Source: an uncultured delta proteobacterium
Lineage (GTDB): Bacteria > Myxococcota_A > Polyangia > Fen-1088
Direction of reading: 5' to 3'
Length of the DNA stretch: 64,000 bases
Assembly: GCA_963767925.1 (NCBI GenBank)
Contig: CAVYGB010000006.1
Span: forward strand, 288,001 to 352,000
Part shown: piece by piece, positions 45,233 to 64,000 of the stretch
Position numbering within the stretch: position 1 is the stretch's first letter
Layout: each line of letters starts with the position of its first letter
Notes under the pieces: model-generated
The model's database searches: none
What the model saw: the letters and a program-made list of their open reading frames with translations, nothing else
Told to the model about the DNA's origin: nothing
Translations under genes and position numbers: made by a program

Positions 45233-47380
45233 GTGAGCCAACCTAGACGAACCACCAAATCGGTCGGGGCTATGGCCCTGGCTTTCACCCTTTTCGGTCA
45301 GTCCCTCCGCGCGCAAGCTGGCGGGGACATAGAGGAGGTCGACCTCGCGGCGCTGCTGAGCACGCCCGAAGAGGTCTGGACCGCCACCAAGACCGAGCAG
45401 AAGAACTACGAGGCGCCCGCCATCATCACCACGGTGACGCGGGAGCAGATCGGGGTGTGGGGCTATCGCTCCATCTCGGAGGTGCTCAGCCACTTGCTCG
45501 GGTTCTACGTGGTGGATGACCACACCTCCCCCAACCTGGCGGTGCGGGGCATCTCGGGCGGTCTGTACGCCGACAGCAGCATCGTCAAGGTCCTCATCGA
45601 CGGACAGTCGGTCGCGTTTCACTCCACCGGCGGCAACTGGCTGGGGCCGGAGCTGATCCCCCTCTCCGCGGTCGAGCGCATCGAGGTCGTGCGCGGTCCC
45701 GCCTCGGCGCTGTTCGGCGCCGACGCCTTCCTGGGGGTCATCAACATCAAGACCCGCAGCGGCAAGAGCCTGACCGGCGCCACCGCCTGGCTGGCGGGCG
45801 GACGGGCGGGCACCAAGCTCGCCACCGACATCGACGTCTCGGCCGGCTTCGAGAAGGGCGACTTCGACGTCGTGGTGGCCGTGCGGCAGAGCAACCAGGA
45901 TCTCTCCGGCCTCACCATCCCCGACAGCTCCCCGGCCCCCTCGGTCCCCAACAACGGCGGCGAGGAGCCGCTGACCGCCGAGGGCCTGGACCAGGCCTCC
46001 AGCTCGGCCCTCGCCCGCGTCACCTACCGGCCGCGCACCGGCACCGAGCTGGGCGTGTTCGGTTACTACTCGTCGATGCGCCGGGGCGAGGAGTTTGGCT
46101 CGCTCTTCCAGCTCGTCAACAACCGGGTGTCGCTGTCGCAGATGCGGGCCGGCCTGTTCCTCGAGCAGACCCTCACCCCCACCCTGCGCCTGTCGTTCAA
46201 GGGCTCGGTCTTCCGGGGCGGGCCCGGGGACGACAACCGCCTGGAGGTCGGCAGCGAGTTCTATTACGTGCGCCGCCAGTTCGGCTTCCGGGGCGGCGAC
46301 GTGGACGGCCAGGTGGAGTGGACGCCCGGCTGGGCCAAGGACGGCTCGGTCCGGCTGGTGGCGGGCGCCAGCGCCTTCCTCGACGACGAGCAGCTCCCCT
46401 CGCGGGTGGGCATCTCCAAGCAGGCCACCGACCTGGTCCAGCCCGGCGACGTCATCGCGCCAATCTCGATCTACCAGGGGCGCAAGAGCTTCCTCAACTC
46501 GGGCGTGTACCTGCAGGGCATGTGGACGGCCATCGAGAACTGGCTCAGCCTCACCGGCGGTCTGCGCTACGACCGGCATAACGTCTACGGTGGCCAGATC
46601 AGCGAGCGCGTCGGCCTGGTCTCGAACCCGCTGTCCAACTTGCACGCCAAGCTGCTCTACGGCAGCGCCTTCAAGTCTCCCTCGCCGCTGCTGCTGTACG
46701 CCATCCCCTCGGCCATCGGGGACGTGGTGGGCAACCCCCAGCTCAAGCCCCAGTTCGTGCGCACGGTGGAGTTCCAGCTCGCCTGGGAGCCGACCGACTA
46801 CATCAGCCTGTCGGGGAACACCGCCTACAACGTCCTGTCCGACAAGACCGAGTTCGTGCAGCAGGGGATCAACAAGGTCGCGCGCAACGTGGCCCGGGCG
46901 GCGACGCTGACCTGGGAGCTCATGGGGGAGTACAAGTACCAGTCGGTGTTCCGGGCGCACCTCAGCTTCGAGACGCAGCGGACGGTGCGGCGGACGGGGC
47001 AAGACGGCTACTCGGCGGAGGTCGTGGGGGACGCGGGGGGGATCTATCCCAACATGATGCTGCACGGGGGGCTGGCGGCGCAGCCGACGAGCTTGCCGTT
47101 GCGGGCGACCGTGCAGGCTTCCTGGATCGGGGAGCGGCGGCCGAGCGATACCAACATCCTGCTCAACGGGGGGCCTTATGTGTTGCCCTCTTATTTGCTG
47201 CTCGAGGCGGGGCTGGCGACGACGCGGTTCGATCTGTTCGGGCTGGACCGGCACGAGGTCTCGTTTGCTTTGACGGGGAAGAACCTCCTCGGTGCGGGAG
47301 GGCCGGCGCCCGGCTTCTCCGGCGTCGACTACCCGCTCACGCCGCGCACCTTCTTCCTGCAGGCCAACCTCGCCCTCTGA
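45233..47380 (+). CDS. TonB-dependent receptor (YfiR-associated type)
   Basis: Signal peptide; DIEEVDLAALL..TATKTEQ..EAPAIITTVTREQI; plug motifs VKVLIDG and VERIEVVRGPASALFGADA..GVINI; GLRYD, GNPQLKP, GKNLL; C-terminal PRTFFLQANLAL. Start is 45233 (GTG) or 45272 (ATG). Confidence 0.92.
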   Translation: MSQPRRTTKSVGAMALAFTLFGQSLRAQAGGDIEEVDLAALLSTPEEVWTATKTEQKNYEAPAIITTVTREQIGVWGYRSISEVLSHLLGFYVVDDHTSPNLAVRGISGGLYADSSIVKVLIDGQSVAFHSTGGNWLGPELIPLSAVERIEVVRGPASALFGADAFLGVINIKTRSGKSLTGATAWLAGGRAGTKLATDIDVSAGFEKGDFDVVVAVRQSNQDLSGLTIPDSSPAPSVPNNGGEEPLTAEGLDQASSSALARVTYRPRTGTELGVFGYYSSMRRGEEFGSLFQLVNNRVSLSQMRAGLFLEQTLTPTLRLSFKGSVFRGGPGDDNRLEVGSEFYYVRRQFGFRGGDVDGQVEWTPGWAKDGSVRLVAGASAFLDDEQLPSRVGISKQATDLVQPGDVIAPISIYQGRKSFLNSGVYLQGMWTAIENWLSLTGGLRYDRHNVYGGQISERVGLVSNPLSNLHAKLLYGSAFKSPSPLLLYAIPSAIGDVVGNPQLKPQFVRTVEFQLAWEPTDYISLSGNTAYNVLSDKTEFVQQGINKVARNVARAATLTWELMGEYKYQSVFRAHLSFETQRTVRRTGQDGYSAEVVGDAGGIYPNMMLHGGLAAQPTSLPLRATVQASWIGERRPSDTNILLNGGPYVLPSYLLLEAGLATTRFDLFGLDRHEVSFALTGKNLLGAGGPAPGFSGVDYPLTPRTFFLQANLAL

Positions 47381-47603
47381 GACGCTTCGCGGCTGCAGCG
47401 GCGCCCTCGTTCGTTTGACGAGGCTGTTGTCGGCGGGGGCCGCTGCGCTTCGAGGGAGGCTTGCCTGAGGCTGTCCGTGCGGCGGCGGGCCGCTGCGCTT
47501 CGTCCGGCTCGAGCGAGCGACGGAGTAGGCGCCTGCCGGCCATGGCGATGCTCACTCGGCTCGCCGGCATGCACCGCCACCAACCCTGATGACTGCCGCG
47601 GCT

Positions 47604-47782
47604 GTCGTGGTCGTGCTCGTGTGCGAGCGCCTGTTCGAGTTCGTGTCCGTGTGTGGTGAGCGTGTTCGGCCCGCGGGCCTCGGCTCGCGTGATTTACGCG
47701 CACCGAGAGCCGCCTGGCCGCTCAACGCTCGCCCCACACGAACTCGAACACGAACACGCGCTCGAACACGCCCACGAGCACG
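47604..47782. repeat. Long imperfect inverted repeat built from CACGAR/YTCGTG hexamers
   Basis: TGTTCGAGTTCGTGT (47632) pairs with ACACGAACTCGAACA (47736); CGTGCTCGTG (47612) pairs with CACGAGCACG (47773); lies between convergent genes. Confidence 0.7.
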
Positions 47783-47941
47783 CGTCCCGGCCTCGAATAC
47801 TCGTTTCGCCCATCGGCGCAAATTCTCCACAGGTTTCAGCGGCTGGCTCTTAGCAGCCCGTGGCTGTTAGATCAGGGCCGGGGGGGGGCTCTGCCGGCGG
47901 TTCGGGGCAGGTGGAGTCGACCCTCTGGGGCGTCCCTGGGG

Positions 47942-49186
47942 TTACTGGCAGGTGTTGGTGTGGGGGAGGTCGACGAAGTTGGCGTCGGCGATGGTCCACC
48001 ATTTGGTGCTGGCGGTGAGGGTCTGGCCGGCGGCGTCGAACTGGAGCTGGCCGGTTAGGCCGAAGAACTCGATCTCGTAACCCTCGCGGAGGAGCTGCAA
48101 ACCCTTGCCGAGCTCGTTCCATTTGACCGAGAGGCCGCCGGCGCGGGTGATGGCGGCGATGTGCTGGGAGAGGCCGGTGCCGGTCGGGATGGCGTTGCCG
48201 CCGCGGGTGGCGCGCTGGATGGCCAGCACCGCGATGGCGCCGGCGTCGTAGAAGGGGTAGGCGTCGTCGAGGGGGGCGTCTTGCCAGCGGGCCAGGAACC
48301 GGGCCCGGAAGTCGCCGGCGCCGGCCACCGTGCCGGGGGCCACGCCCTTGGCGCCGTTCAGGATCCCCTTGGGGATCGAGTCGAGGAAGGCCGGGGTATG
48401 CAGCGTTGGCGACAGGTACCAGCGCCTGGGATCGTCGAGGGCGTCCGAGCCCGCGGCGAGGGCGTAGATCAACGACGAGGCGATCTCCGGGGGGGCCGCC
48501 AGCACGTAGGCCTCGCGGGTCGCGAGCAGGTTGGCCAGCGATTGCACCGATTCGACGCTCGCGGACTGGGTGCTCGCCAGGACGTTCTTGAACAGCTCGA
48601 AGCTGTTGTTGAGGGCAAAGCCGAGGGAGGCGTTGTAACCGCTGGTCCCGACGAGCTGGACCGACCGCCGGCGGTCGTGTCCATCGCGCTCGAGCTGGGT
48701 CACCAGCTCGCAGGCCACGCGGCGCATTCCGGCGCCCATGACGAACCAGGAGGGCGGCTTCCACTCCACGTCGGAGGCGGTGGCGAAGCTCGGCAAGATG
48801 ACGGTGCGGGCCTCGATCAGCGGCCGCACCTGGGTGACCAGGTCGGTGTAGTCGGGGCCGATGAGGACCGCCGATCCAGCGTCGATCAGCTCCTGCAGGG
48901 GGGCGGCCGCCTTGTTGGGATCGCTGCGGCTGTCGCGGGCCAGGACCTTGATCCGCCGGCCGTCGATGCCTCCCGCCGCGTTGGCGTTCTCGATCGCCAT
49001 CAGGAGGGCCCGCTCGGAGTTGATGCTGTTCGAGGACAGAAACCCCGTGTAAGAGAGCATCAGCCCGATCTTGATGGGATCGTCTTTGGGCGGCGCCTCA
49101 CAGTTGAGCGCGCCGCCCAAAAACACCAACCCAGCTACTGCGAGGCCGAACCCGCCAGGGCTCCGTTTCACAGTAGACGCTCGCAC
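47942..49186 (-). CDS. LIV-type (type I) substrate-binding lipoprotein, copy 2
   Basis: Lipobox ALNC; IKIGLMLSYTG, NAAGGIDGR, RDSRSDP and YDAG motifs; paralog of 50627-51835. Confidence 0.85.
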   Translation of the reverse strand: MRASTVKRSPGGFGLAVAGLVFLGGALNCEAPPKDDPIKIGLMLSYTGFLSSNSINSERALLMAIENANAAGGIDGRRIKVLARDSRSDPNKAAAPLQELIDAGSAVLIGPDYTDLVTQVRPLIEARTVILPSFATASDVEWKPPSWFVMGAGMRRVACELVTQLERDGHDRRRSVQLVGTSGYNASLGFALNNSFELFKNVLASTQSASVESVQSLANLLATREAYVLAAPPEIASSLIYALAAGSDALDDPRRWYLSPTLHTPAFLDSIPKGILNGAKGVAPGTVAGAGDFRARFLARWQDAPLDDAYPFYDAGAIAVLAIQRATRGGNAIPTGTGLSQHIAAITRAGGLSVKWNELGKGLQLLREGYEIEFFGLTGQLQFDAAGQTLTASTKWWTIADANFVDLPHTNTCQ

Positions 49187-49187
49187 G

Positions 49188-50555
49188 TTAACGGTGGGCC
49201 GCCAGGGCGTCGTTCGCGTCCTTCTGCATGTCCGCAATCGCCTGGTCGACGGTCTTGGCGCCGGTGGCGGTCGGGGTGAGCCGGCCCTTCACAGCTGCAA
49301 AGAAGTTGCTCATCAGCGCCCCCTCGACGGTCTCGATGGCGCCGCCCGGGATGTAGCCCACCCACTGCCCCTTCTCGAGCAGCGGCTGGACCTTGGCCAG
49401 GGTGGGGTCGCCCGCGGCCGCCGCCGGGGTGCCGTTCACCTTCAGGGCCGGCAGCGCGCCGGTGGTGGCCGACCACTTGCGCATGGCCTCGGGCGACAGA
49501 GCGAGGGCCTTCAGGAAGTCGAAGGCCGCCTTCTGGTTCTTGCTGGTCTTGGGGACCACGAAGGCCCAGCCCGAGTTCTGCACGAACTTGTGCTCGCCGC
49601 CGTCCATCGGCGGCAGCACGAAGTATTCGTACACGGTGCTGCTCCCGGCGGGGACCTGCCCGCGGACGTTGGGGATGCCCCAGGTGCCGACGTAGCCCAT
49701 CACCGACAGGGGCTTGGCCGGGTCGCTCCAGCCGTAGCCGGTGGCGCCGAGCGCGAGGCGGGTGGTCACGAAGGTGTTCTCACCGGGGATCAGGCTGGTG
49801 TGCATGACCTTGCTGTCGGCCACCCAGCCCACCATCTCGCCCAGGGCGGCCTTGGCCTCGGTGGTGTTGAAGTTGAAGGTCCCGTCGTTGGCCCAGTAGT
49901 TGCCACCCTTCTGCAGGATCTTGCTGAAGAAGATGTGCTTGACCGGCTGGGGCCATTCCATCGCGATGTCGAGGCCGTTGGCCTTCGGCATGGTGCCGGT
50001 GCTGTCGTATTCGGTCAGCATGGCCGCCTCCTGGATGAACTGGGCCCAGGTGGTCCAGTTGGGCTTCATGCCGGCCCCGAACTTGTCCTGGTACTTGGTC
50101 AGGTTGACCACCACGCCGCCGTATTCGAGGTTGTACTCCATCGGCAGGCCCTTGAGCTTGCCACCGCAGGTCGTCCCCTGCAGGGGGGCGGCGAAGTACG
50201 TGTTCTGGGCCTCGCTGAGGGTGACGACGTCCTCGGGGATGTCGGCGATCTGATCGGCGAAGGTGCACACCCAGGAGGGCTGCACGCGGACGAGGTCGTA
50301 CTGGAGGGTGCCGGCCTTGAGGTTGCCCAGGAGCTGCGTGCCGAGCTCGGTGTAACGGAGGGTCGTCGCGTTCACCGTTACGTGGCTGTTGGTCTTGCGA
50401 TAATCCTCGATGAAGGCCGTGTCCGCGGTGTTGTAGTCGGGGTTGTCGTGCCGCAAGACAGTCAGAGTCACGGCCTGCGGTCCCGTGGGACCTTCGTTGT
50501 CATCGCCGCAAGCACCAACTAACCCCACCAGCGCCACCCAATAAAGTCTTCTCAT
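49188..50555 (-). CDS. Carbohydrate-type (type II) extracellular solute-binding lipoprotein, copy 2
   Basis: GAGAGG RBS; lipobox LVGAC; GLPMEYN, WTTWAQF and FVQNSGWAFVVPKTSKN motifs; paralog of 51892-53256. Confidence 0.88.
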   Translation of the reverse strand: MRRLYWVALVGLVGACGDDNEGPTGPQAVTLTVLRHDNPDYNTADTAFIEDYRKTNSHVTVNATTLRYTELGTQLLGNLKAGTLQYDLVRVQPSWVCTFADQIADIPEDVVTLSEAQNTYFAAPLQGTTCGGKLKGLPMEYNLEYGGVVVNLTKYQDKFGAGMKPNWTTWAQFIQEAAMLTEYDSTGTMPKANGLDIAMEWPQPVKHIFFSKILQKGGNYWANDGTFNFNTTEAKAALGEMVGWVADSKVMHTSLIPGENTFVTTRLALGATGYGWSDPAKPLSVMGYVGTWGIPNVRGQVPAGSSTVYEYFVLPPMDGGEHKFVQNSGWAFVVPKTSKNQKAAFDFLKALALSPEAMRKWSATTGALPALKVNGTPAAAAGDPTLAKVQPLLEKGQWVGYIPGGAIETVEGALMSNFFAAVKGRLTPTATGAKTVDQAIADMQKDANDALAAHR

Positions 50556-50626
50556 CAAAGCACCTCTCCGGTAGTTCACCAACCCGCTATCGGTCAACCG
50601 GGGTGCGACCTTGAGGGAATCGGGTG

Positions 50627-51835
50627 CTACTGGCAGGCCCCTGCCCGCGGAATATCCTCGAAGCCGTCTTCGCCGACGGTCCACCACTTGGTGGTCGCGG
50701 TGGGTGTCTGTCCGGAAACGTCGAACTGGATGAGCCCGGTCAGGCCGAAATATTCGATCTCCTGGCCCTGCCCCAGCAGCGCGAGCCCGCGCTCGAGCTC
50801 GTGCCACTGGATCGGCTGACCGCCGGCCCTGGTGACCTCCAGCACATGCGGGGCCAGCCGGTTGGTATCGGGGATCGCCCCCTCGCGGCTCATCGCCCGG
50901 GCCAGGGCGAAGACGGCGATCGCACCGGCATCATAGAAGGGATAGGCGTCGTCGAGGGGCACGTCCTGCCAGCGCTCGGCGAAGGCGGTCCGGAAGGCCC
51001 CCGCGCCGCCCACCGTTCCGGTCGAGACGCCCCGAGCGCCGTTCATGCCCCCCTTGGGGATTGACTCGAGGAAGGCGGGGGTGTGCAGGGTCGGCGAGAG
51101 GTACCAGCGGGTCGGATCGCCGAGCTCGCCGGTGGCGGTCAACGCGTAGACCAGGGCCGAGGCCGAGGTGGGGAAGGCGGCCAGCACGATGGCGTCCCGG
51201 TCGAGCACGGACCGGGAGATCATGCGCAGGCTCTCGCTGTCGGCGGCCAGGTCGGTCGGAAAGACCAGCTTCGGCATGCCGTAGGTGAGGCCCAGGTCCC
51301 AGGACAGGGCGTTGTTCTGGCCGGTCGGGTTGACCAGCAGGAGCGGGTTGGTGCGACCATCGCCGCGGAGCTGCGCCACCAGCTCGCAGGCGATCCGGGT
51401 GGTGCCGGCCCCCATGACGAACCAGGACGGGCGCCGCCACTCGACGTCGGAGGAGGTGTTGCTGCTGGGGAGAATGACGGTGCGGTCGATGAACAGCGGC
51501 CCCAGGTTGGCGATGAGGTCGGTGGTGTCTGGACCGATGACCAGCGCCACCCCGGCGTCGAGCAACTCGCGGGCGGGGACTCCTACCTTGCGGGGGTCGC
51601 TGCGGGTGTCCCGGGCCAGCAGCCGCAGCGGCCGGCCCCCGATCCCGCCCGCGGCGTTGGCCGCCTCGAAGGCCATCCGCAAGGCCCGCTCGGAGTTGAC
51701 GCTGTTGGCGGCCAGGTACCCCGTGTAAGAGAGGAGCAGGCCGACCGAGACGGCATCTCCCGGCGGCGGCTCGCGGTCACAAGCGAGCACGCCGCCGAGA
51801 GCAAGACAAATGAGGACGAGCCTGCTTACCGGCAT
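50627..51835 (-). CDS. LIV-type substrate-binding lipoprotein, copy 1
   Basis: Lipobox VLAC; VGLLLSYTG, NAAGGIGGR, RDTRSDP, WYLSPTLHTPAFL and PLDDAYPFYDAGAIAV. Confidence 0.85.
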   Translation of the reverse strand: MPVSRLVLICLALGGVLACDREPPPGDAVSVGLLLSYTGYLAANSVNSERALRMAFEAANAAGGIGGRPLRLLARDTRSDPRKVGVPARELLDAGVALVIGPDTTDLIANLGPLFIDRTVILPSSNTSSDVEWRRPSWFVMGAGTTRIACELVAQLRGDGRTNPLLLVNPTGQNNALSWDLGLTYGMPKLVFPTDLAADSESLRMISRSVLDRDAIVLAAFPTSASALVYALTATGELGDPTRWYLSPTLHTPAFLESIPKGGMNGARGVSTGTVGGAGAFRTAFAERWQDVPLDDAYPFYDAGAIAVFALARAMSREGAIPDTNRLAPHVLEVTRAGGQPIQWHELERGLALLGQGQEIEYFGLTGLIQFDVSGQTPTATTKWWTVGEDGFEDIPRAGACQ

Positions 51836-51860
51836 CGGAGTGGTTGAACCGTTATCACGG

Positions 51861-51895
51861 AGCCGGGCTCCCTCGCTTCGCTCGGGCCTGACTAG
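51861..51895 (-). repeat. Dispersed CTAG-CCCGAGCGAAGCGAGGG hairpin repeat, copy B
   Basis: Reverse complement reads CTAGTCAGGCCCGAGCGAAGCGAGGGAGCCCGGCT; its TAG is the stop of the upstream SBP gene. Confidence 0.8.
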
Positions 51896-53256
51896 CGGTG
51901 GTTGGCCAGCTCGGCGTTGGCCGCCGTCTGCATGTCGGTGAGCGCCTGCATGACCGTCTTGGTGCCCTTGACCGCGTCGAAGTAGTTGCTGACGAGGATG
52001 CCCTCGATGGTCTCCAGGCCGCCGGCCGGGATGTAACCCACCCACTGCCCCTTCTCGAACAGGGGCTGCACCTTCTGGAGCTGGGGATCGGCGGCGGCGG
52101 CGGCGGGAGTGCCGTTGGCCTTGAGGGCCGGGAGCGAGCCGGCGGTGGCGGCCCACTTGCGCATGGCCTCGGGTGACAGGGCCATCGCCTTGGCGAGGTC
52201 CCAGGCGGCCTTGGGGTTCTTGCTGGTCTTCGGCACGACGAAGGCGAAGCCCGAGTTCTGCACGAACTTGTGCTCGTCGCCCACCATGGGCGGCAGGGCG
52301 ACGAAGTCGTAGCGGATCGAGCTACCCGCCGCGAGCTGGCCCACGGTGTTGGCCAGGGCCCAGGTGCCGGCGTAGCCCATCACGCTGAGGGGCTTGGCGG
52401 CGTCGCTCCAGCCGTAGCCGCTCGCGCCGCTGGCCAGGCGCACGGTCACGAAGGTGTTCATGGCCGGCACCAGCTCGGGGAACATCACCTTCTCGGTGGC
52501 GACCCAGCGGACCATCTCGGTGAGGGCGGCCTGCCCGGCGGCGTTGGTGAAGTTGAAGTTGTGCTTGTTGCCGTCGAAGGCGGCGTCGGCGCCGTCCCAG
52601 TATTTGCCTCCGTTCTGGAGGATCAAGCTGAGGAAGATATGCTTGACCGGCTGGGGCCAGCCGTTGTCGATGTCGAGGCCGTTGGCCGCCGGCTTGGCGC
52701 CGTCGTATTCGGCGAGCTCGGAGGCCTGGCGAATGAAGTCCGTCCAGGTGGCCCAGCTCGGCTTGGCGCCCTGGTATTCGGCCTCGTATTTGGTCATGTT
52801 GACCACCACGCCGCCGTATTCCAGATTGTATTCGGTGGGCAGACCCTTGAGCTTGCCGCCGCAGGTCGAGCCGGCCAGCGGGGCGGCGAAGAAGGTGTTC
52901 TGCGCCTCGGGCAGCGTGATCACGTCCGTGGGCACGTCCTGGACGTTGTCGGCGAAGCCGCACACCCAGGAGGGCGGCACGATGACGAGGTCGGCGTCGA
53001 GCTTGTTCTGCCTCAGCTCGGCGAGGAGGGTGGAGGTCAAGGTGGGGTAACGGACGGTCGTCGGTTCCACCGTGATGTTGGGCTTGAGGGCCTTGTAGTC
53101 GGCCAGGAACTCGTCGTCTGCCTTCGCGTAAGGCGGATTGTCGTGCCGCAGGTACTTGAGGGTGACCGGCTTGTTCGGGTCCTCGGTCTCCCCCTCGCCA
53201 CAGCCGCCCAGCAGCGCCGCTCCCACCACCACCGCCCAATATGATGTTCTCTTCAT
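51892..53256 (-). CDS. Carbohydrate-type extracellular solute-binding lipoprotein, copy 1
   Basis: GGAGAGG RBS; lipobox LLGGC; GLPTEYN, EHKFVQNSGFAFVVPKTSKN and EKGQWVGYIP. Confidence 0.88.
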   Translation of the reverse strand: MKRTSYWAVVVGAALLGGCGEGETEDPNKPVTLKYLRHDNPPYAKADDEFLADYKALKPNITVEPTTVRYPTLTSTLLAELRQNKLDADLVIVPPSWVCGFADNVQDVPTDVITLPEAQNTFFAAPLAGSTCGGKLKGLPTEYNLEYGGVVVNMTKYEAEYQGAKPSWATWTDFIRQASELAEYDGAKPAANGLDIDNGWPQPVKHIFLSLILQNGGKYWDGADAAFDGNKHNFNFTNAAGQAALTEMVRWVATEKVMFPELVPAMNTFVTVRLASGASGYGWSDAAKPLSVMGYAGTWALANTVGQLAAGSSIRYDFVALPPMVGDEHKFVQNSGFAFVVPKTSKNPKAAWDLAKAMALSPEAMRKWAATAGSLPALKANGTPAAAAADPQLQKVQPLFEKGQWVGYIPAGGLETIEGILVSNYFDAVKGTKTVMQALTDMQTAANAELANHR

Positions 53257-55198: not shown

Positions 55199-55217
55199 CG
55201 CAAACAAGGATGGGAAA

Positions 55218-56573: not shown

Positions 56574-56628
56574 ACCCCGGTGGATGGCGGCGGGCTCTTC
56601 GAGGCGCGACTAGCTCCGGTGGGGTTTC

Positions 56629-58839
56629 GTGGCGGGTGATCAGGATGCAAAGCTCCGCAGACGGCTCGAGACGTTCAGAACCGTCGCGCAGGAGCGGCTG
56701 GACCGGCTGAACCTCGGCTGGATCCAGTTCGAGCAGGGGACCGGCGGGCCCAACGCCGGGACCGTCTTCCTGCGCGAGATCCACACCCTCAAGGGGGAGG
56801 CGGGCCTGACCGGCTTCGCCTCGGTCTCGCGCCTGCTGCACCGGCTGGAAGACCTGGTCGGGGCGGTGGTCAAGTCGGGGGCTGCCCTCGACGCCAGCGC
56901 CGGCGACCTGGTGATGCGGGGCCTCGATCTGGCCGGCACGGTCATCAAGCGCGCGCCCGAGGCGGAGTCCCCCGACATCAACACCTTCCTCGAGGAGGTG
57001 CCCAAGCCCGATTCCAGGCCCAGCGCCCCGGTGGCCAGTCCGGTGCCGGTCGCGCCGGCGCCGGCGCCGCCACCTCCCGCGGCGGCGAGCGTGCCCCATC
57101 CGCCCGCCGCGCCCGCGGCCGCGGCCCACCCCCCCGAGGCGCCCCGCCGGGCCCAGGAGGCCGTGCGCCTCACCTCGGAGAAGCTCGACAGCCTGCGCGA
57201 TCTGGTGGCCGAGCTGCTGCTGACCCGGGTCCGCCTGGAACGATCGGCGGCCGAGCTGCGCAACGCCAAGGAGACCGCCCTCGAGCTGCGGCAGACCACC
57301 CGCCAGCCCGGGCAGCTCGCCAGCCGGGAGATCAACCAGCTCGGCGAGGCCCTCTCCGGCCTGGAGGTCCGCCTGCGCGACGAGGCCCACCAGGTCAGCC
57401 GGCTGGTGGGGGGCCTCGACTCGTCCACCCGCGATCTGCGCATGGTGCCCCTGGGCTTCCTGCTCGATCGCTTCCCGGTGGCGGTGCGGACCCTCTCGCG
57501 CAAGCTCGGCAAGCAGGTCCAGCTCCGCACCGAGGGCGACGTCACCGAGGTCGACCGGGAGGTGCTCGAGCGGCTGGCCGAACCGCTGCTCCACCTCATC
57601 ACGAACGCCGTCGACCACGGGATCGAGGACGTCGAGAAGCGGACCAAGTCCGGCAAGCCCGCCGAGGCAACCCTGGTGCTGCGGGCCTGGCTGGCCGGTC
57701 AGACCCTGCACGTGGAGGTGACCGACGACGGCGGCGGCATCGACGCCCGGTCGGTGCGCGAGCGGGCCATCAGCCTCAAGATCCTCGACCCGATGAGCGC
57801 CCGCCAGGTCAGCGACGACCAGATCATCCGCACCATCTTCTCGGCCGGCTTCTCCAGCCGCAGCCAGGTGACCGAGACCTCGGGGCGAGGCATCGGCCTC
57901 AACGTGGTGCTCTCGGCGGTCGAGGGGCTCGGCGGCCGGGTCGAGGTACGCACCACCCTGGGCCACGGGACGGTGTTTCACCTGCAGGTGCCCGTGACGG
58001 TGGCCATCTCGGCGGTGGTGCTGTTCCGCACCGGCGCCTCCCGCTACGCCATCCCCACCTCGGCGGTGGAGACCATCATCGAGAACACGGCCGAGGCCAG
58101 CGTCGACAGCGTCGACGGGCGGGCCATCAAATACTCCGGCCGGGTGATCCCCTTGATCTCCCTGGAGTCGCTGCTGGGTGAGCAGAGCATCGGGGTGAGC
58201 AAGGCCGGGCGGGGCGGGCGGATCCTCATCGTGCGCAGCGGCGGCGATCGGGTGGCCCTGGGCGGCAGCTTCGATCACGTCGAGCGCGAGGTCGTGCTCA
58301 AGCCGGCGGGCAAGTTCTTCGAGCAGCAGCGCCTGGTGAGCGCCGCCGTGCACCTCGAGGACGGGTCGCTGGCCCTGGTCCTCAAGCCGGCCGAGCTGGT
58401 GTTCGCCGCCCGGGGCGAGCGGCGCCCCGAGGTCGTGGTGGCGGGAAACTCGGCCCCCCGCACCGGGTTCGGCAAGACCGTGCTGGTCGTCGACGACTCG
58501 CCGGTGGTGCGGGACCTGATCGCGGACGCGCTGCGAGCCCACGGCATGCGGGTCATCGAGGCGGGCGATGGCGAGGAGGCCCTCAGTCTGCTGGCCACCC
58601 ATCCGAGTATTGATCTGGTGGTAACCGACTTCGAGATGCCGCGCCTCGACGGCATCGGCCTCATCCGGGCCAACCGGGCCCGGGAGAGCGGCCGCCGGCT
58701 GCCCATGGTGGTGGTCTCGATGCGTGGGAGCGAGAGCGACAAGCGGCTCGCCCTCGACGCGGGCGCCGACTCCTACCTGGTCAAGAGCGACTTCTCCCAC
58801 GCCGGCCTCTGGACGATGATCTCGCGTTTCCTGGGGTGA
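56629..58839 (+). CDS. cheA: CheA-REC hybrid kinase (FrzE-like)
   Basis: Hpt REIHTLKG; HLITNAVDHGIE, DDGGGID, GFSS, SGRGIGL; CheW domain; C-terminal VVDDS..TDFEMP..YLVK. Confidence 0.95.
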   Translation: MAGDQDAKLRRRLETFRTVAQERLDRLNLGWIQFEQGTGGPNAGTVFLREIHTLKGEAGLTGFASVSRLLHRLEDLVGAVVKSGAALDASAGDLVMRGLDLAGTVIKRAPEAESPDINTFLEEVPKPDSRPSAPVASPVPVAPAPAPPPPAAASVPHPPAAPAAAAHPPEAPRRAQEAVRLTSEKLDSLRDLVAELLLTRVRLERSAAELRNAKETALELRQTTRQPGQLASREINQLGEALSGLEVRLRDEAHQVSRLVGGLDSSTRDLRMVPLGFLLDRFPVAVRTLSRKLGKQVQLRTEGDVTEVDREVLERLAEPLLHLITNAVDHGIEDVEKRTKSGKPAEATLVLRAWLAGQTLHVEVTDDGGGIDARSVRERAISLKILDPMSARQVSDDQIIRTIFSAGFSSRSQVTETSGRGIGLNVVLSAVEGLGGRVEVRTTLGHGTVFHLQVPVTVAISAVVLFRTGASRYAIPTSAVETIIENTAEASVDSVDGRAIKYSGRVIPLISLESLLGEQSIGVSKAGRGGRILIVRSGGDRVALGGSFDHVEREVVLKPAGKFFEQQRLVSAAVHLEDGSLALVLKPAELVFAARGERRPEVVVAGNSAPRTGFGKTVLVVDDSPVVRDLIADALRAHGMRVIEAGDGEEALSLLATHPSIDLVVTDFEMPRLDGIGLIRANRARESGRRLPMVVVSMRGSESDKRLALDAGADSYLVKSDFSHAGLWTMISRFLG

Positions 58840-58840
58840 G

Positions 58841-59854
58841 ATGTCCGTCCGGGTGGTGATCGTCGACGATTCGCCGCTCGTGCGGGGTCTGCTCCGGGAG
58901 GCGCTCAGCGAGCAGCCGGACCTGCAGGTGGTGGGCGAGGCCGGCGATGGTCTGGCCGCGCTCCGGCTCATCAAGCAGGCCCGGCCCGACGTCGTCACCA
59001 TGGACGTCCTCATGCCCATCATGGGTGGACCGGAGGCCATCCGCCGGGTGATGCAGGAGTGTCCCACCCCCATCGTCGTGTTCGCCGCCGCGCGCGCCGA
59101 CCAGAACCTGGCCTGGCAAGCGCTCGAGAGCGGCGCAGCCGAGGTGTTCGCCAAGCCGACAGCCGGGCTCGACGCGGTCACGGTGGCCAACCTGGCCGCC
59201 GCCCTCCGCCGCGCCGCCAGCGCCCGGGTGGCCCGGCGGCCGGCCTTCGAGCCCGCCCCCGCCCCCCGCCCCCACGCCGTCCGGGCCCACACCGCCGTGA
59301 TCGGCATCGTGGGATCGACCGGCGCCCCCCGGGTGCTCCAGGCCATCCTCTCGGCGCTGCCCGCCTCTTTCCCCTGGCCCATCGCGATCGTGCAGCACAC
59401 CCTGCGCGGCTTCGCCGATTCGCTCGCCAAGTGGCTGGCCGGCTACACCGCGCTGCGGGTCGAGCTGGCCCGCAACGGCACCGAGCTCAAGCGGGGCACC
59501 GTGCTGGTCGCCCCCGACGACGCCCACCTCGAGATCCAGTCCAAGGGGCGGGTCCACCTCAACCCGGGGCCCTCGGTCGACGGACACCGGCCCTCGGCCA
59601 CCGTGCTGCTGCGCTCGCTGGCCAGCGCCTACGGCATCCGGGCCGCCGGCCTGGTGCTCACCGGCATGGGCCGTGACGGCGCCGAGGGGGCGGCGGCCAT
59701 CGACGCGGCCAGGGGGCTCATGATCGTCGAAGAGCCGCGCACCGCCATGTTGCCGAGCATGCCGGGGGAGGCCCTGGGGCGCGTCCCCAGCGCCATCCGC
59801 GAGGAGGCCGAGCGGCTGGGCCACCTCTTGCTGGAGCTGTCGGGGCGGCCATGA
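58841..59854 (+). CDS. cheB: CheB methylesterase with REC domain (FrzG position)
   Basis: IVDDS..MDVLMP; catalytic GSTG, VQH and LTGMGRDG. Confidence 0.93.
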   Translation: MSVRVVIVDDSPLVRGLLREALSEQPDLQVVGEAGDGLAALRLIKQARPDVVTMDVLMPIMGGPEAIRRVMQECPTPIVVFAAARADQNLAWQALESGAAEVFAKPTAGLDAVTVANLAAALRRAASARVARRPAFEPAPAPRPHAVRAHTAVIGIVGSTGAPRVLQAILSALPASFPWPIAIVQHTLRGFADSLAKWLAGYTALRVELARNGTELKRGTVLVAPDDAHLEIQSKGRVHLNPGPSVDGHRPSATVLLRSLASAYGIRAAGLVLTGMGRDGAEGAAAIDAARGLMIVEEPRTAMLPSMPGEALGRVPSAIREEAERLGHLLLELSGRP

Positions 59855-61314
59855 ACCGGGCAGAGACCTTCCACCTGCTGCGCGAGCGCTTCCGGGTGTG
59901 GACCGGAAACCTGCTCTCGGTGACCCGCTCGACCGCGGCCATGGAGGCCCTGAGCGACCTGTCGGCCCGCCGCCGGGTTCCCCCCGATCGCTTCCTCGAC
60001 ATGGCCGATCGCAGCCCCAGCGATCGCCAGGAGCTGATCGAGCGCCTCACCATCCGCACCACCTGGTTCATGCGTGAGCCCGACGCCATCCTGGCCCTGG
60101 CGGCGGCGTTCAAGAAGCGGGCCGGCCTGCACGGCAGCCACCGGGTGACGCTCTGGTCGGTGGCCTGCGCCACCGGCGAGGAGCCCTACACGCTGGCGAT
60201 GGCCCTCATCGACGCCGGGCTCGAGCCCATCATCCTGGCCACCGACATCAGCGGTGACGCCCGGGCCACCGGTGAGCTCGGGCAATACCCGCGCAACCGC
60301 ATCGACGAGCTGCCCCTGCGCTGGCGCCAGCGCTTCTTCCTCTCGGCGGGGGCCGACCGGGTGCAGGTGGCGCCCGGCATCCGCGACGCGGTCTCCTTCG
60401 TCGAGCACAACCTCGTGCAGTCGCAGCGCCCCCCGCCCGGCTGGGCCATGTTCGACGCCATCGTGTGCCGGAACGTGCTGCTCTACTTCGATCGAAGCGA
60501 AGCGGTGCGCCTGCTGCGCGAGCTCTCCCTGGCCTGCCGGGAGGAGGGCTACGTGCTGCTGAGCGCGGCCGAACATCCGCTGGCCTGGTCCATCTCCACC
60601 CTGGGCTTCGAGCCCAAGAGCGAGACGCCTCTGCTGCGCCGGCGCCGGCGCAACGACCCCTCTTCCACACTGGCGGCCTTCGATCGGAGCGAGACGTCTG
60701 GTTTCTTCAACCCCGACGGGGTTTCGCGCCGGGACATCTCCGGCCTCATCGCGCTGCACCCGCCCGGCCTGGTCAACGGCGGGCCCCGGCCCGCCCCGCC
60801 GCCGGCCGCGCCCCCGGTCGAGGCGCCGCCACCCCCACCCCCCGCCAGCGCCAGCACGAGCGGAGGGGCCACCCCCCAGCCGACGCTCAACCCGGCGGCC
60901 TACGCCAAGGATCTGCACGCCGCCAACGCGGTCGCGCGTCAGGGCGACCTCGACAGCGCGCTGGGGCTGCTCAAGCGCATCGTCGAGCGCGACGCCCTCG
61001 CCGCCCACGCCCACCTGGCGATCGGGCTGCTCCTCAAGAAGCAGGGCCGTCTGGCCGAGGCCACCTCCGCCCTGCGGCGGGCGCGTTTCCTCTTCGGCGA
61101 CGACTCCTGGCTGGCCCCCTACACCCTGGCGGTCTGCCTGGAGGCCCGTGGCGACTGGCGCGAGGCGCTCGAGGGATACCGGCAAGCGGCCGCCGTGCTC
61201 GAGTGGGGGGGACCGTCGGGGCTGCTCGACCTCGAGGCCAACGAGCAAGATTTCGCTTCGACCGTTCTGGAGAGTTGTCTTCGACGAATGGGGACGCTGC
61301 AAAGTCGCACCTGA
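59851..61314 (+). CDS. cheR: CheR methyltransferase with C-terminal TPRs (FrzF-like)
   Basis: TTWFMRE, WSVACATGEEPY, ATDIS, HNL and CRNVLLYF motifs; TPR helices at the C-terminus. Confidence 0.92.
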   Translation: MNRAETFHLLRERFRVWTGNLLSVTRSTAAMEALSDLSARRRVPPDRFLDMADRSPSDRQELIERLTIRTTWFMREPDAILALAAAFKKRAGLHGSHRVTLWSVACATGEEPYTLAMALIDAGLEPIILATDISGDARATGELGQYPRNRIDELPLRWRQRFFLSAGADRVQVAPGIRDAVSFVEHNLVQSQRPPPGWAMFDAIVCRNVLLYFDRSEAVRLLRELSLACREEGYVLLSAAEHPLAWSISTLGFEPKSETPLLRRRRRNDPSSTLAAFDRSETSGFFNPDGVSRRDISGLIALHPPGLVNGGPRPAPPPAAPPVEAPPPPPPASASTSGGATPQPTLNPAAYAKDLHAANAVARQGDLDSALGLLKRIVERDALAAHAHLAIGLLLKKQGRLAEATSALRRARFLFGDDSWLAPYTLAVCLEARGDWREALEGYRQAAAVLEWGGPSGLLDLEANEQDFASTVLESCLRRMGTLQSRT

Positions 61315-61323
61315 GAGGGAAAC

Positions 61324-61698
61324 ATGGACACTGGTATCGTGTACCTGGATGACAGCGAAGTTTCGCTCGAGGCGGTCAAGGACGGCCTCGAAGCTTGCGG
61401 ACTACAGGTCACCACCCACCGCAACCCGGTGACCATTTACGCGGCGCTGGCCTCGGTCAAACCGGCCCTGCTGCTGCTGGACGCCAACATGCCGACGCTC
61501 GACGGCAAGACGATCTGCGCGCTGGTCAAACGCCACCTGCCCAAGCTGCCGATCGCCCTGTTCTCGTCGCTCTCGGCGGCCGAGCTGGCGGCGCTGGTGC
61601 GCCAGTGCGGGGCCGACGGCTACATCGTCAAGACCGGGGACTACGCCAAGGTGGCCAAGGACATCCGCGGCATCATCGCCCGCAGAGCAGCCGGCTGA
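61324..61698 (+). CDS. Single-domain response regulator
   Basis: GAGGGA RBS; LDDS, LLDANMP, FSS and YIVK. Confidence 0.9.
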   Translation: MDTGIVYLDDSEVSLEAVKDGLEACGLQVTTHRNPVTIYAALASVKPALLLLDANMPTLDGKTICALVKRHLPKLPIALFSSLSAAELAALVRQCGADGYIVKTGDYAKVAKDIRGIIARRAAG

Positions 61699-61783
61699 CG
61701 TACAGGCCCGCACCCGTGAAGTCGGACCGGGCATCTGCCGATGAGAAGCGAAAGGCCCCAGCTCAACCGCTGGCTTCTCGATC

Positions 61784-63127
61784 GTGACTTTGCAGCCCAG
61801 TCGAATCCCCATAGCAGACCCCGAGGACGGCGGCGCGCCGGAGTCCGGCGAGGCGAGCTCCAGTCCCGGTGCGCCCGGGCGCCTGCTGGTCGTCGACGAC
61901 TCGCTCGTGACGGTGGATGTGGTCTCCGACTTCATGCAGGACCAGGGCTGGGAGGTGGAGACCGCCCTGTCGGCCGCCCAGGCCCTCGAGAAGCTGAGCG
62001 CCTTCCGGCCCGAGGTGGTGGTCTCGGACCTCAACATGCCCGACCTCGACGGCCTGGGCCTGTTCCGTCGCATCCGCCAGGTCGACGCCACCGTGCCGGT
62101 GATCATGTTGTCGGGGGAAGACCGGCTCGAGTCGGTGCTCGCCAGCATGCACGCCGGGGTGTTCGATTTCGTGCAGAAGCGGGACTGCGTGCACACCCTC
62201 CCGGCGGCTGCGCTGCGAGCGGTGGCCCACTGTCGGGTGGTGCGCGAGAACCGCCGCCTCAACGGCGACCTCATGCGCATGAACGAGGCGCTCGAGCGGC
62301 GGGTCCAGGAGCAGACCGCCTTGCTGGAGGATCGCATGCGCCGGGCGGCCGCCCTCGAGACGGCGGCCGCCGTGGCTCCCCTGCGCAAGGAGCTGGAGAT
62401 CGCCCAGCACATCCAGACCTCGATCCTCCCGAAGAACTTCGACGTGGCCGGGCTGAAGATCGCCGCCCACATGTTGCCGGCGGCGGTGGTGGGGGGCGAC
62501 TACTTCGACGTGCGGCCGGTGCCCGACGGGGCCTGGATCGGGGTGGGCGACGTGTCGGGCCACGGGCTCACCGCCGGCCTGCTGATGCTGATGATCCAGA
62601 GCGGCATCTCCGCCCTCACCCTGCAGCGCCCCGAGGCCCTGCCCCACGAGCTCCTGCCCCACCTCAACCGGCTCATGTGGGAAAACGTCCGCGAGCGCCT
62701 GGGGCGGGACGACTTCGCCACCTTGTGCCTCATCCGCTACTTCCGCGACGGCCGTCTGCTGCACGCCGGCGCCCACGAGGACATCCTGGTGTGTCGCGCG
62801 GCCGGGGGACCCTGCGAGCGGATCGCCGCGCCGGGCACCTGGCTGGGAGGGGTGCGGGACATCCGCCGCGCCACCAAGACCCACAACATCCAGCTCGCCG
62901 ATGGAGACACGGTGGTGCTGTTCACCGACGGCATCACCGAGGCTCGGGCCGGCGACCGCAGCTTCTATGGCCTCGACGGCCTGTGCGGGGCCATCGAGAC
63001 CAACCGCTCGCTGGAGGTGGAGGACCTGCGCGAGGCGGTCATGCGCGACGTGCTGAGCTGGTCGCCCACCCCGGAAGACGACATGACCATCATGGTCATG
63101 CGCTACCAGAGCCCCCCGCCCGCCTAG
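61784..63127 (+). CDS. REC-coiled coil-SpoIIE/PP2C phosphatase
   Basis: VVDDS..SDLNMP; ELEIAQHIQTSILP, VGGDYFD, GDVSGHG, FTDGITEA and DDMT motifs. Confidence 0.93.
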   Translation: MTLQPSRIPIADPEDGGAPESGEASSSPGAPGRLLVVDDSLVTVDVVSDFMQDQGWEVETALSAAQALEKLSAFRPEVVVSDLNMPDLDGLGLFRRIRQVDATVPVIMLSGEDRLESVLASMHAGVFDFVQKRDCVHTLPAAALRAVAHCRVVRENRRLNGDLMRMNEALERRVQEQTALLEDRMRRAAALETAAAVAPLRKELEIAQHIQTSILPKNFDVAGLKIAAHMLPAAVVGGDYFDVRPVPDGAWIGVGDVSGHGLTAGLLMLMIQSGISALTLQRPEALPHELLPHLNRLMWENVRERLGRDDFATLCLIRYFRDGRLLHAGAHEDILVCRAAGGPCERIAAPGTWLGGVRDIRRATKTHNIQLADGDTVVLFTDGITEARAGDRSFYGLDGLCGAIETNRSLEVEDLREAVMRDVLSWSPTPEDDMTIMVMRYQSPPPA

Positions 63128-63166
63128 CAGCCCGAGCGAAGCGAGGGAACCCGACTACTTCGAAAA
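63124..63166 (+). repeat. Dispersed CTAG-CCCGAGCGAAGCGAGGG hairpin repeat, copy C
   Basis: CTAGCAGCCCGAGCGAAGCGAGGGAACCCGACTACTTCGAAAA fills the gap between the PP2C stop and the next ATG. Confidence 0.82.
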
Positions 63167-63814
63167 ATGTCCTCTGACGCAGCTACGCGGACCCGGCCCG
63201 CCCGCTCAACTTCACCGCCTGTCCCTCCGATATCAGCCTGGTCCGCTCGCGGTGTGGCGCCGACGGAGACCTTCCCCCTGAGCAGCAGCAAGACAAAGAC
63301 CCAGCCGTTGCCGATTCCCGAGCTGCCCCGGGCCTTCGGCTTCGATCTCAGCATCGATCCCAACCCCCGGTTCGTGTCGGTGGTGCGGCGCTTCGTGGAG
63401 GCCTCCTGCGAGCGGCTGCTCTGTGACCCGGAGGCCGTGTTCCGGGTGTCGATGAGCGCCCACGAGCTGATGGAAAACGCCGCCAAATACGCTATCGGGT
63501 CCAAGAGCCTGTTGCGGGTCTCGTTCAAACGCGACGAGCACGGCGACGCCCAGGTCGCCCTCTACCTGAGCAACGAGACCACCCCCGAGCACATCGAGCG
63601 GCTGCGCGAGCGGGTCACCGCCATCATCTCGGCGCCCGACCCCTTCGAGCACTATCAGAAGTTGATGCGACAAAACGCCCGCATCACCTTCGAGTCGGGG
63701 CTGGGCCTGGCCCGCATCCGGGCCGAAGGCCACATGGTCCTGGACCTGGAGGTCCGGGGTAACTCCGTTGCGATAATCGCCAACACCCGCGTGGAAAAAG
63801 AGGCAGTGCGATGA
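63167..63814 (+). CDS. GHKL anti-sigma/switch kinase-like protein (SiaB/slr1658-like)
   Basis: N-box AHELMENAAKY; G-box ESGLGLARI; DPFEHYQKLM; true start may be downstream. Confidence 0.75.
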   Translation: MSSDAATRTRPARSTSPPVPPISAWSARGVAPTETFPLSSSKTKTQPLPIPELPRAFGFDLSIDPNPRFVSVVRRFVEASCERLLCDPEAVFRVSMSAHELMENAAKYAIGSKSLLRVSFKRDEHGDAQVALYLSNETTPEHIERLRERVTAIISAPDPFEHYQKLMRQNARITFESGLGLARIRAEGHMVLDLEVRGNSVAIIANTRVEKEAVR

Positions 63815-64000
63815 GCGCAATCGCGTCCGTTTCCGAGCCGGATTTCAACGCCGAAGCCGGCAGCAACAACGGGATCTTGACCATTTCGCTGACCGGAAAC
63901 GCCGATCTGAACGTGAAGACTCAGCTCGACGGGTTCCTGATCGCCGTCCACGAGGAGGCCCGCCGCCTCTCGGTGACCGACGTCGAGGTCGACGTGCGGC
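63811..64000 (+). CDS. STAS-like anti-anti-sigma protein (SiaC/slr1659-like), truncated by the window edge
   Basis: ATGA overlap with the upstream gene; manual translation MSAIASVSEPDFNAEAGSNNGILTISLTGNADLNVKTQLDGFLIAVHEEARRLSVTDVEVDVR, where ISLTGNAD and VEVD fit the STAS pattern. Confidence 0.7.
   Translation, partial: MSAIASVSEPDFNAEAGSNNGILTISLTGNADLNVKTQLDGFLIAVHEEARRLSVTDVEVDVR

Follow-up and report, generated by a model that had tools for sequence, protein, structure and literature searches.

A YfiR-like gene set in a solute-binding lipoprotein operon, between a TonB-dependent receptor gene and a chemosensory cluster of a Myxococcota genome: a candidate trans-envelope sensing module

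We analyzed a stretch of 64,000 nucleotides from an uncultured, soil-type delta proteobacterium of the Myxococcota (NCBI GenBank assembly GCA_963767925.1, contig CAVYGB010000006.1, forward-strand positions 288,001 to 352,000), hereafter the window, which corresponds to G000:C6:288001-352000 in our numbering (G000 being the genome itself and C6 its contig of 445 kb), and we also examined the genome sequence downstream of it. Toward its end the window holds a gene for a TonB-dependent receptor (TBDR), an operon whose first gene encodes a YfiR-like periplasmic protein, and, divergent from that operon, a chemosensory gene cluster built around a methyl-accepting chemotaxis protein (MCP) and followed by genes of a putative partner switch. 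With a G+C content of ~68-73% in this region, reading frames were picked by Pfam matches and third-position G+C, giving the following features in window coordinates (ORF, open reading frame; REC, receiver domain).

ORF 45068-47380, likely start 45233, plus strand: TBDR (Pfam Plug E=4.8e-17, barrel E=2.2e-16)
47942-49237, true start probably near 49171, minus strand: Peripla_BP_6 (type I) binding protein, copy a (PF13458 E=1.1e-19)
49188-50555, likely Met start 50555, ORF open to 50807, minus strand: SBP_bac_8 (type II) binding protein, probable lipoprotein, copy a (PF13416 E=2.2e-19)
50627-51835, likely Met start 51835, ORF open to 52156, minus strand: Peripla_BP_6 binding protein, probable lipoprotein, copy b (PF13458 E=4e-19)
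51892-53256, minus strand: SBP_bac_8 binding protein, probable lipoprotein, copy b (PF13416 E=1.3e-19)
53364-53966, minus strand: YfiR-like periplasmic protein (DUF4154), first gene of the minus-strand operon (PF13689 E=1.1e-10)
53967-54224, no strand: divergent intergenic region between the yfiR-like gene and cheW, from sequence reading
54225-54794, plus strand: cheW (PF01584 E=9.8e-21)
54791-55198, plus strand: second, divergent cheW-like gene, cheW' (PF01584 E=0.003, below cut-off)
55218-56573, plus strand: MCP chemoreceptor (MCPsignal E=2.5e-21)
56629-58839, plus strand: cheA with a C-terminal receiver (Hpt, H-kinase_dim, HATPase_c, CheW and REC domains)
58841-59854, plus strand: cheB methylesterase (PF01339 E=5.7e-49, plus REC)
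59851-61314, plus strand: cheR methyltransferase with a TPR tail (PF01739 E=5.2e-35, plus TPR families)
61324-61698, plus strand: single-domain receiver, CheY-like (PF00072 E=4.9e-15)
61784-63127, plus strand: REC-PP2C (SpoIIE-type) phosphatase (SpoIIE E=2.9e-37, REC E=1.7e-22)
63167-63814, plus strand: GHKL-like protein of the slr1658 superfamily (NF047703 E=3.5e-10, HATPase_c_2 E=2.3e-5, both below cut-off)
63811-64000, ending 185 bases past the window, plus strand: STAS-like protein of the slr1659 superfamily, 124 residues (NF047705 E=1.7e-8, below cut-off)

The yfiR operon encodes five periplasmic proteins, four of its genes (47942-53256) being the solute-binding protein genes that lie between the TBDR and the yfiR-like gene, and the TBDR forms a separate unit convergent to it. 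The original prediction for this locus, made from sequence alone, had named the TBDR, yfiR, chemosensory and partner-switch genes, and all of these are present close to where it had put them, as ORFs with Pfam or NCBIfam matches and with a signal-peptide-like start for the TBDR at 45233 as it had proposed; it overlooked the four binding-protein genes, and the TBDR and yfiR-like genes are not neighbors. It had also reported neither a cyclase nor a YfiB-type outer-membrane lipoprotein nearby, and we agree on both counts, finding no GGDEF family among the Pfam matches to genes from 45068 to the operon end and none of the genome's 30 OmpA-family matches on contig C6.

Evaluating the YfiR-like protein by family and by fold, we found that it scores 42.2 bits against PF13689 (cut-off 24.9) over a match limited to model positions 44-143, its C-terminal two thirds, and that 113 of its 114 relatives in a large protein collection carry the same family. 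Its structural model (pLDDT, the predicted local distance difference test, 89.6) has P. aeruginosa YfiR as nearest fold by target template-modeling score (4zhu_B; TM 0.80, root-mean-square deviation 2.8, 161 columns, 17% identity), and it also superposes on small and half-size substrate-binding proteins, the small ones being its top Foldseek matches by E-value. A by-eye reading of the translation suggests export, through an N-terminal hydrophobic stretch ending A-A-Q before residue 35, and the mature protein has one Cys only (C128), with no conserved Cys column across the subfamily. Conservation in the subfamily is highest in a C-terminal F-x-S-x-L-L-R-x-A stretch; in P. aeruginosa the YfiN-binding surface has been placed at the YfiR C-terminus (Malone et al., PMC3375315), and the YfiR pocket that takes YfiB F57 is described as also binding small molecules (PMC4887326).

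The MCP comprises a first transmembrane segment (TM1), a CHASE8-type PAS-like periplasmic domain of ~130 residues, a second transmembrane segment (TM2) and the MCP signaling domain, with no Pfam match to HAMP. Its residues 10-191 match the N-terminal module of NF053592 (E=3.3e-11), and an hhalign comparison of the MCP family with six CHASE8 kinase sensors gave 99.7% probability (E=7.8e-27) over 187 columns that span the whole TM1-sensor-TM2 module. PF17152, the Pfam CHASE8 family, is found in 14 of 29 close MCP homologues, and more distant MCP homologues beside yfiR-like genes exceed its cut-off at four loci (L049, 38.5 bits; L052, 28.2; L058, 39.5; L078, 36.9). The sensor model (pLDDT 83.8) consists of a long helix, a five-stranded sheet and a second long helix in a single PAS/PDC fold, with CitA (2v9a_B, TM 0.74 by target), WalK and KinD among its fold matches. 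These results, like those for the YfiR-like protein, uphold the identification of a YfiR-family protein and of a YfiN-type, CHASE8/sCache-like sensor on which the original prediction was built. The most conserved stretch of the sensor is A-P-A-V-E-F (residues 57-62), and Table 1 of Malone et al. places six of ten periplasmic YfiR-insensitive YfiN mutations at positions 62-70 (Y62, A66, A67, V68 and F70 named; PMC3375315); the stretch appears to fit the residue pattern of YfiN 62-70, a correspondence mapped from the printed residue names rather than from an alignment to the YfiN sequence. A complex prediction pairing MCP residues 30-160 with the mature YfiR-like protein (residues 34-200) scored 0.31 against a mark of 0.32, was run without controls, and weighs neither way.

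On the input side, translations show lipobox-like stretches in SBP_bac_8 copy a (LVGAC), Peripla_BP_6 copy b (GVLAC) and SBP_bac_8 copy b (LLGGC), and a Cys after the signal sequence in Peripla_BP_6 copy a; because a Cys directly follows the signal sequence in each, the four binding proteins are probably lipoproteins. The mature TBDR begins with an acidic N-terminus followed by a TonB-box-like V-W-T-A-T, and six aligned TBDRs, all of them yfiR-linked (that of the window and five others), share an acidic D-L-x-x-L-L-x-T-P motif that precedes the TonB-box-like stretch. Pfam reported no STN domain on the window TBDR or on the other yfiR-linked TBDRs scanned, and we therefore rejected a FecA-type transducer as its identity. 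Just upstream of the TBDR lie a Gfo/Idh/MocA oxidoreductase gene with a twin-arginine signal (43311-44603) and, before it, a gene for a DoxX-like membrane protein (42749-43294).

The same association recurs within the genome. Three of its five DUF4154 genes stand beside a CHASE8-like sensor and three of its four CHASE8-like matches stand beside a DUF4154 gene (two matches score above cut-off, both among those three), the three neighbor pairs being the window pair and two canonical operons of yfiR, CHASE8-HAMP-kinase and receiver genes on contigs C4 and C8. A true member of the NF053592 kinase family (212 bits, above cut-off) adjoins another DUF4154 gene of this genome. The C4 locus carries paralogues of the window's TBDR (59% identity), SBP_bac_8 (52-54%) and Peripla_BP_6 (52-55%) genes, and a third locus on contig C2 (L090, G000:C2:1955000-1974900) encodes SBP_bac_1/8 and Peripla_BP_6 proteins, two TBDRs, a HAMP kinase and a receiver, with a PF04392 (ABC_sub_bind) protein divergent from the kinase in the place of the DUF4154 gene. 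Genome-wide there are only four SBP_bac_8 copies and four close TBDR copies, all within these three loci (window, C4 and C2), the three TBDR paralogues at C4 and C2 being 59-68% identical to that of the window, and each of the three loci combines a membrane sensor (MCP, CHASE8 kinase or HAMP kinase) with a YfiR-clan protein (DUF4154 or PF04392). As a baseline, 27 Plug genes occur over the 9.3 Mb of the genome, such that a random 20-kb span holds one ~6% of the time. General Pfam scans matched no ABC permease or ATPase family at the window, C4 or C2 loci, and for this reason the binding proteins look like sensors rather than parts of importers. An MFS transporter gene and a LytS-type kinase gene also lie near the C2 set. 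Elsewhere, the window's YfiR-like protein has a close paralogue (51% identity), encoded downstream of genes for an AraC-family regulator and a GH9 cellulase on C8 (L027:9904-14577), an arrangement kept in the sister genome G001 (L048) with no TBDR or CHASE8 sensor nearby.

In that sister genome, which is of the same genus, the gene order of the window is retained up to the contig ends, with SBP_bac_8, Peripla_BP_6, SBP_bac_8 and yfiR-like genes on one side and cheW, cheW', MCP, cheA, cheB and cheR on the other. To place the locus more widely, we scanned sequence collections with a narrow subfamily alignment that reaches close relatives only, yielding 6 genome and 10 metagenome loci, five of which measure <=2.1 kb. 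Within the fetched flanks of these 16 loci a TBDR was present at eight, a homologous sensor at eight (seven MCPs and one hybrid kinase) and che genes at five. Gene orders vary: L055 has the order of the window; Pyxidicoccus caerfyrddinensis (L052) has TBDR, MCP and yfiR-like genes in that order; L058 runs cheW, MCP, cheA, cheB, TBDR, yfiR; L062 runs yfiR, MCP, cheA, cheB; L056 has yfiR followed by an MCP; and in L049 a TctC gene adjoins the TBDR, followed by a yfiR-like gene convergent to cheW-MCP-cheA-cheB. Six pairs of metagenome YfiR-like and MCP homologues with identical longest-contig sizes suggest further linked pairs.

A sample of the phylum (401 genomes) contained the subfamily at E<=1e-20 in 11 genomes, our own included, and the other ten hold 12 loci, where a TBDR is present at 11 and a CHASE8-type sensor at seven. 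Of these sensors five are kinases, one is an MCP (G037/L078) and one is a membrane protein of HAMP-Hpt-HATPase architecture. At three of the 12 loci (L079, L086, L087) a type I binding-protein gene lies between the TBDR and yfiR-like genes, and, across both surveys, six loci (L056, L062, L078, L084, L086 and L087) have the yfiR-like gene directly adjoining a same-strand CHASE8-type sensor gene. Co-occurrence of TBDR, yfiR-like and CHASE8-type MCP or che genes, on which the original prediction had staked its proposal, is thus seen in related and unrelated Myxococcota and in several gene orders. Because related genomes are kin, the counts overstate independence, and the varied gene orders are the stronger argument. 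Membrane proteins of HAMP-Hpt-HATPase type, in which a transmembrane sensor bears a CheA-like kinase core, stand beside yfiR-like and TBDR genes in three genomes, at L083:7382-9634, L085:4844-7093 and L088:2081-4315, with a weak CHASE8 match in one only. In two uncultured deltaproteobacterial metagenome-assembled genomes (L050, L051) the TBDR gene is divergent from the yfiR-like gene, which is followed by a NifA-type GAF/sigma-54 activator gene, with no CHASE8 sensor in the flank; a DUF6599 gene and nifHDK-like genes also follow in L050, and in L051 the genes past the activator lie outside the scan. With sigma-54 activators near related loci, we sought a sigma-54 promoter in the yfiR-cheW spacer (53967-54224) and found no match to the consensus there, the matches in the window being fewer than in shuffled sequences. 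No Rfam family matched in 44000-64000, a span that includes this intergenic region and a 43-base repeat described below.

Assessing the cytoplasmic side, we found the Che core in one operon, with strong Pfam scores for CheW, MCP, CheA-REC, CheB and CheR-TPR and a weak one for the second CheW, which is conserved (69% identity in G001, 43% in L055). The phosphatase carries an N-terminal REC and scores 128.9 bits for SpoIIE against a cut-off of 25; the overlapping ORF 61741-63177 has no Pfam match and was rejected as the phosphatase frame in favor of 61784-63127. The GHKL-like protein scores 24.9 bits for HATPase_c_2 (cut-off 27.4) and 39.6 for NF047703, the slr1658 superfamily (cut-off 100), and has an N-box-like HELMENAAKYA and a G-L-G-L with no evident D-x-G-x-G; it is a candidate serine kinase or anti-sigma-like partner. 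The STAS-like protein matches STAS_2 (E=9e-4, 19.8 bits against 29.2), TIGR00377 (E=9e-5, 22.3 against 53.45) and NF047705 (34.8 against 100), and its translation contains F-M-N-S-S, a possible, unaligned counterpart of the SpoIIAA serine site.

Downstream of the STAS-like gene come a second slr1658/slr1659 pair, a transposase gene, a UbiD gene and a Ser/Thr kinase gene. We saw no sigma factor or other switch target within 7.3 kb downstream, a genome-wide target search not having been made, and no transcription factor gene nearby. The second slr1658-like/slr1659-like pair (L009:1310-3833, 1.3-3.8 kb past the window end) is inverted and convergent to the first, with DNA 70% identical over 440 bases, and is followed by an IS5/ISNCY-type transposase gene; it may have arisen by a duplication linked to this insertion sequence. 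A 43-base element occupies 63130-63172 between the REC-PP2C and slr1658-like genes. The genome carries it at no fewer than 40 further sites with 80-100% identity, and within the window a second copy lies near 28738-28795. The annotated ATG of the slr1658-like ORF falls inside this genome-wide repeat, which makes the ORF start doubtful.

To summarize its biology, the module is real, with its domains, folds and linkage established, and we infer from them every protein contact, ligand, sign of regulation, phosphate flow and direction of signaling in what follows. We interpret the locus as a periplasmic sensing module joined to a chemotaxis-type pathway of the Wsp/Frz-like, non-motility kind, in which a ligand is relayed through the YfiR-like protein to the MCP, a reading to which we give an even chance. 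The TBDR would bring a solute across the outer membrane, and the SBP_bac_8 and Peripla_BP_6 lipoproteins, the soluble YfiR-like protein with its half-binding-protein fold, or both, would bind it in the periplasm. In the manner of YfiR with YfiN, the YfiR-like protein would bind the CHASE8/PAS-like MCP domain, its bound or unbound state setting the signaling state of the receptor, and solute occupancy would alter this binding. The receptor would then control CheA-REC through the two CheW proteins, with CheB and CheR-TPR providing adaptation, and phosphate would pass from CheA-REC to the CheY-like receiver and to REC-PP2C, which would probably act on the STAS protein paired with the GHKL-like kinase or binding partner in a partner switch. 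We favor a relay by ligand because binding proteins recur with the module and the TBDRs lack an STN domain, because the YfiR fold is that of half a binding protein whose partner pocket in P. aeruginosa also takes small molecules, and because yfiR-TBDR pairs exist without a sensor, like a receptor and its periplasmic binding protein.

Several observations weigh against this reading. Outside the genus, the closest MCP orthologues (in G008, G023 and G029, from other genera of the family), with sensors 37-44% identical, have no adjacent yfiR, their clusters being of the form REC-PP2C / REC-cheW-MCP-cheA-cheB; the only DUF4154 match of G023 lies on another contig, G008 has a sub-threshold match elsewhere, and G029 (93% complete) has none at E<=0.01. 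The sensor can therefore exist without a YfiR-like partner. Conversely, seven yfiR-like loci have a TBDR and no nearby sensor (L050, L051, L057, L081, L082, L085 and L089, five of which, L057, L081, L082, L085 and L089, are pairs of yfiR followed by TBDR), and two have neither TBDR nor sensor (L048, L027). The window TBDR is on the opposite strand and convergent to the yfiR operon, and is therefore not co-transcribed with it. The match to PF17152 expected of the MCP by the original prediction reached 22.6 bits, below the cut-off of 27, although homology to CHASE8 sensors was borne out by hhalign. A subfamily profile search of solved structures found no YfiR chain at E<=1, so that the link of the subfamily to the YfiR structure comes through the fold search alone. 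The two disulfides of P. aeruginosa YfiR (Cys71-Cys110 and Cys145-Cys152), described as giving redox sensing and folding (PMC4887326), are absent here, given the single Cys of the mature protein. At the output end the kinase and STAS genes fall below every curated cut-off, and kinase activity of the GHKL-like protein is uncertain with sub-threshold scores and no evident DxGxG-type ATP-lid motif. Finally, gene neighborhood cannot separate an input from a regulated target.

This last point bears on the alternative that survives best, which we nonetheless consider unlikely, namely that the YfiR-like protein and MCP form a sensor pair and that the TBDR and binding proteins are an uptake system that they switch on rather than their input. 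Sensor systems often sit beside transport genes that they control, and the separate, convergent unit of the TBDR and the MFS transporter near the kinase, binding-protein and TBDR set at C2 would suit such a regulon. TOL_0244, the TBDR of T. oleivorans that gives NF053590 its name, is reported to be induced sevenfold on a long-chain alkane (PMC6304351), which would suit it as well. Against it, the four binding-protein genes share their operon with the yfiR-like gene and not with the TBDR, the type I binding-protein genes between TBDR and yfiR elsewhere belong to single-strand cassettes, and the pathway here ends in a partner switch, with no gene for a transcription factor close by. Regulation of uptake and relay of its solute to the MCP can both hold, as in Fec-type feedback.

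In a protein relay of the kind put forward by the original prediction, the TBDR would take the part of YfiB, and ligand or TonB action would let its N-terminal stretch capture the YfiR-like protein and free the MCP, with no solute needed at YfiR, a route that we consider distinctly improbable. It has a precedent in YfiBNR, where an outer-membrane protein sequesters YfiR (PMC3375315), and with no OmpA/YfiB gene on the contig another outer-membrane partner would be needed if sequestration were kept; the acidic motif of the six aligned TBDRs could serve, and nothing in the neighborhood is more constant than the pairing of TBDR and yfiR (11 of the 12 phylum-sample loci). Capture by the receptor leaves the recurrent binding proteins without a role, however, and it sits poorly with TBDRs that bear no STN-type signaling domain by Pfam and with a half-binding-protein fold that has a ligand pocket. 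That the YfiR-like protein is a mere periplasmic cargo binder of TonB-dependent uptake and the MCP senses a ligand of its own, as the seven sensor-free loci, the yfiR-free MCP orthologues of G008, G023 and G029 and the small substrate-binding proteins heading the Foldseek matches might suggest, is very unlikely given the same-strand adjacency to a CHASE8-type sensor at six loci, the three of four CHASE8-like matches paired in this genome, and a pairing that outlasts changes in gene order.

Extending the relay of solute through the YfiR-like protein beyond this window, we tentatively propose, though we think it less likely than not, that TBDRs signal across the envelope by a second way independent of extracytoplasmic function (ECF) sigma factors, in which cargo (via lipoproteins) or the receptor itself would titrate a YfiR-like shuttle off a CHASE8 sensor, the module being pluggable into kinases, membrane-bound CheA-like kinases or a full Che pathway ending in a partner switch. 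To our knowledge, work on YfiR has been confined to its role as repressor of a single diguanylate cyclase in a few Proteobacteria. Among Myxococcota, nearly every locus examined links the YfiR-like protein to a TBDR, and often also to type I binding proteins and to CHASE8 sensors, the outputs of these sensors being of three different kinds. Should this protein be the means by which the receptor or its cargo controls the sensor, the module would constitute a general outer-membrane-to-cytoplasm signaling route besides the Fec-type sigma/anti-sigma systems. It would also provide a first input for a non-motility Che pathway, the stimulus not being known for most such pathways. The window version offers many readable outputs (MCP methylation, CheA activity, STAS phosphorylation), and three paralogous loci in one genome permit swap experiments.

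Seen against known systems, the locus is a rare version of a widespread envelope sensor that is catalogued but experimentally unstudied, and the novelty that the original prediction saw in its combination was overstated. Malone et al. described in 2012 a modular YfiR-YfiN[PAS] core with in silico outputs that include kinases, GGDEF/EAL pairs, HPT and 'MCP domains' (PMC3375315), the term 'TonB' occurring 0 times in that article; Che clusters of the stage-1 F7 class with anti-sigma antagonists and a serine phosphatase are also in print (PMC7184735), as are such switch genes in Che clusters of Campylobacterota (PMC9239204). NCBIfam moreover lists a trio with the same three-part logic, NF053590 (TOL_0244 family TBDR), NF053591 (TOL_0243 family YfiR-like) and NF053592 (YfiR-like protein-associated sensor histidine kinase). 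The window trio scores 60.8, 26.9 and 43.2 against the respective cut-offs of 645, 125 and 194, far enough below them that we rejected membership in the TOL_0244 families, and its output is an MCP rather than a kinase. In literature covered with few subscription journals, we found no study joining YfiR or DUF4154/CHASE8 with TBDRs or chemoreceptors, nor one on the mechanism of the trio.

With YfiBNR (TpbB/DgcN in P. aeruginosa and E. coli, HmsCDE in Yersinia) the window shares a YfiR-fold DUF4154 gene beside a YfiN-type CHASE8/PAS-like membrane sensor, and it differs in having no cyclase, no YfiB/OmpA lipoprotein gene on the contig and no YfiR disulfides, in an output that is a whole Che pathway, and in the TBDR and solute-binding lipoproteins that accompany it. 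Like Wsp of Pseudomonas and Frz of Myxococcus, it has two CheW-like genes, a membrane MCP, a CheA-REC hybrid, CheB and CheR-TPR, and unlike them it has a transmembrane receptor with a CHASE8 sensor and an output of REC-PP2C, STAS and GHKL-like proteins rather than REC-GGDEF (Wsp) or motility control (Frz); CheR-TPR is described as a mark of Che pathways with alternative cellular functions (PMC3447774). The REC-PP2C, small STAS-like and GHKL-like genes in a row recall the partner switches RsbU/RsbV/RsbW, SpoIIE/AA/AB and SiaABC, with the difference that the window's STAS and GHKL proteins belong, below cut-offs, to the little-studied slr1658/slr1659 superfamilies and are followed by a second, inverted pair. 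FecA-FecR-FecI likewise ties a TBDR to a signaling chain, whereas the window has no STN domain, anti-sigma factor or ECF sigma factor. In LuxP-LuxQ, TorT-TorS and WalK with YycH/YycI, a periplasmic binding-fold protein sets the state of a PAS-like sensor, and LuxP-LuxQ chains and a WalK-YycH model are among the fold matches of the YfiR-like and MCP sensor models; here the shuttle would be a DUF4154 protein and the receiver of its signal a chemoreceptor. Two features are particular to the window, namely that the SBP_bac_8 and Peripla_BP_6 lipoprotein genes occur as a doubled pair within the yfiR operon and that a full Che pathway comes with a partner switch of slr1658/slr1659 type; particular to its genome are the three paralogous input sets with three different sensors.

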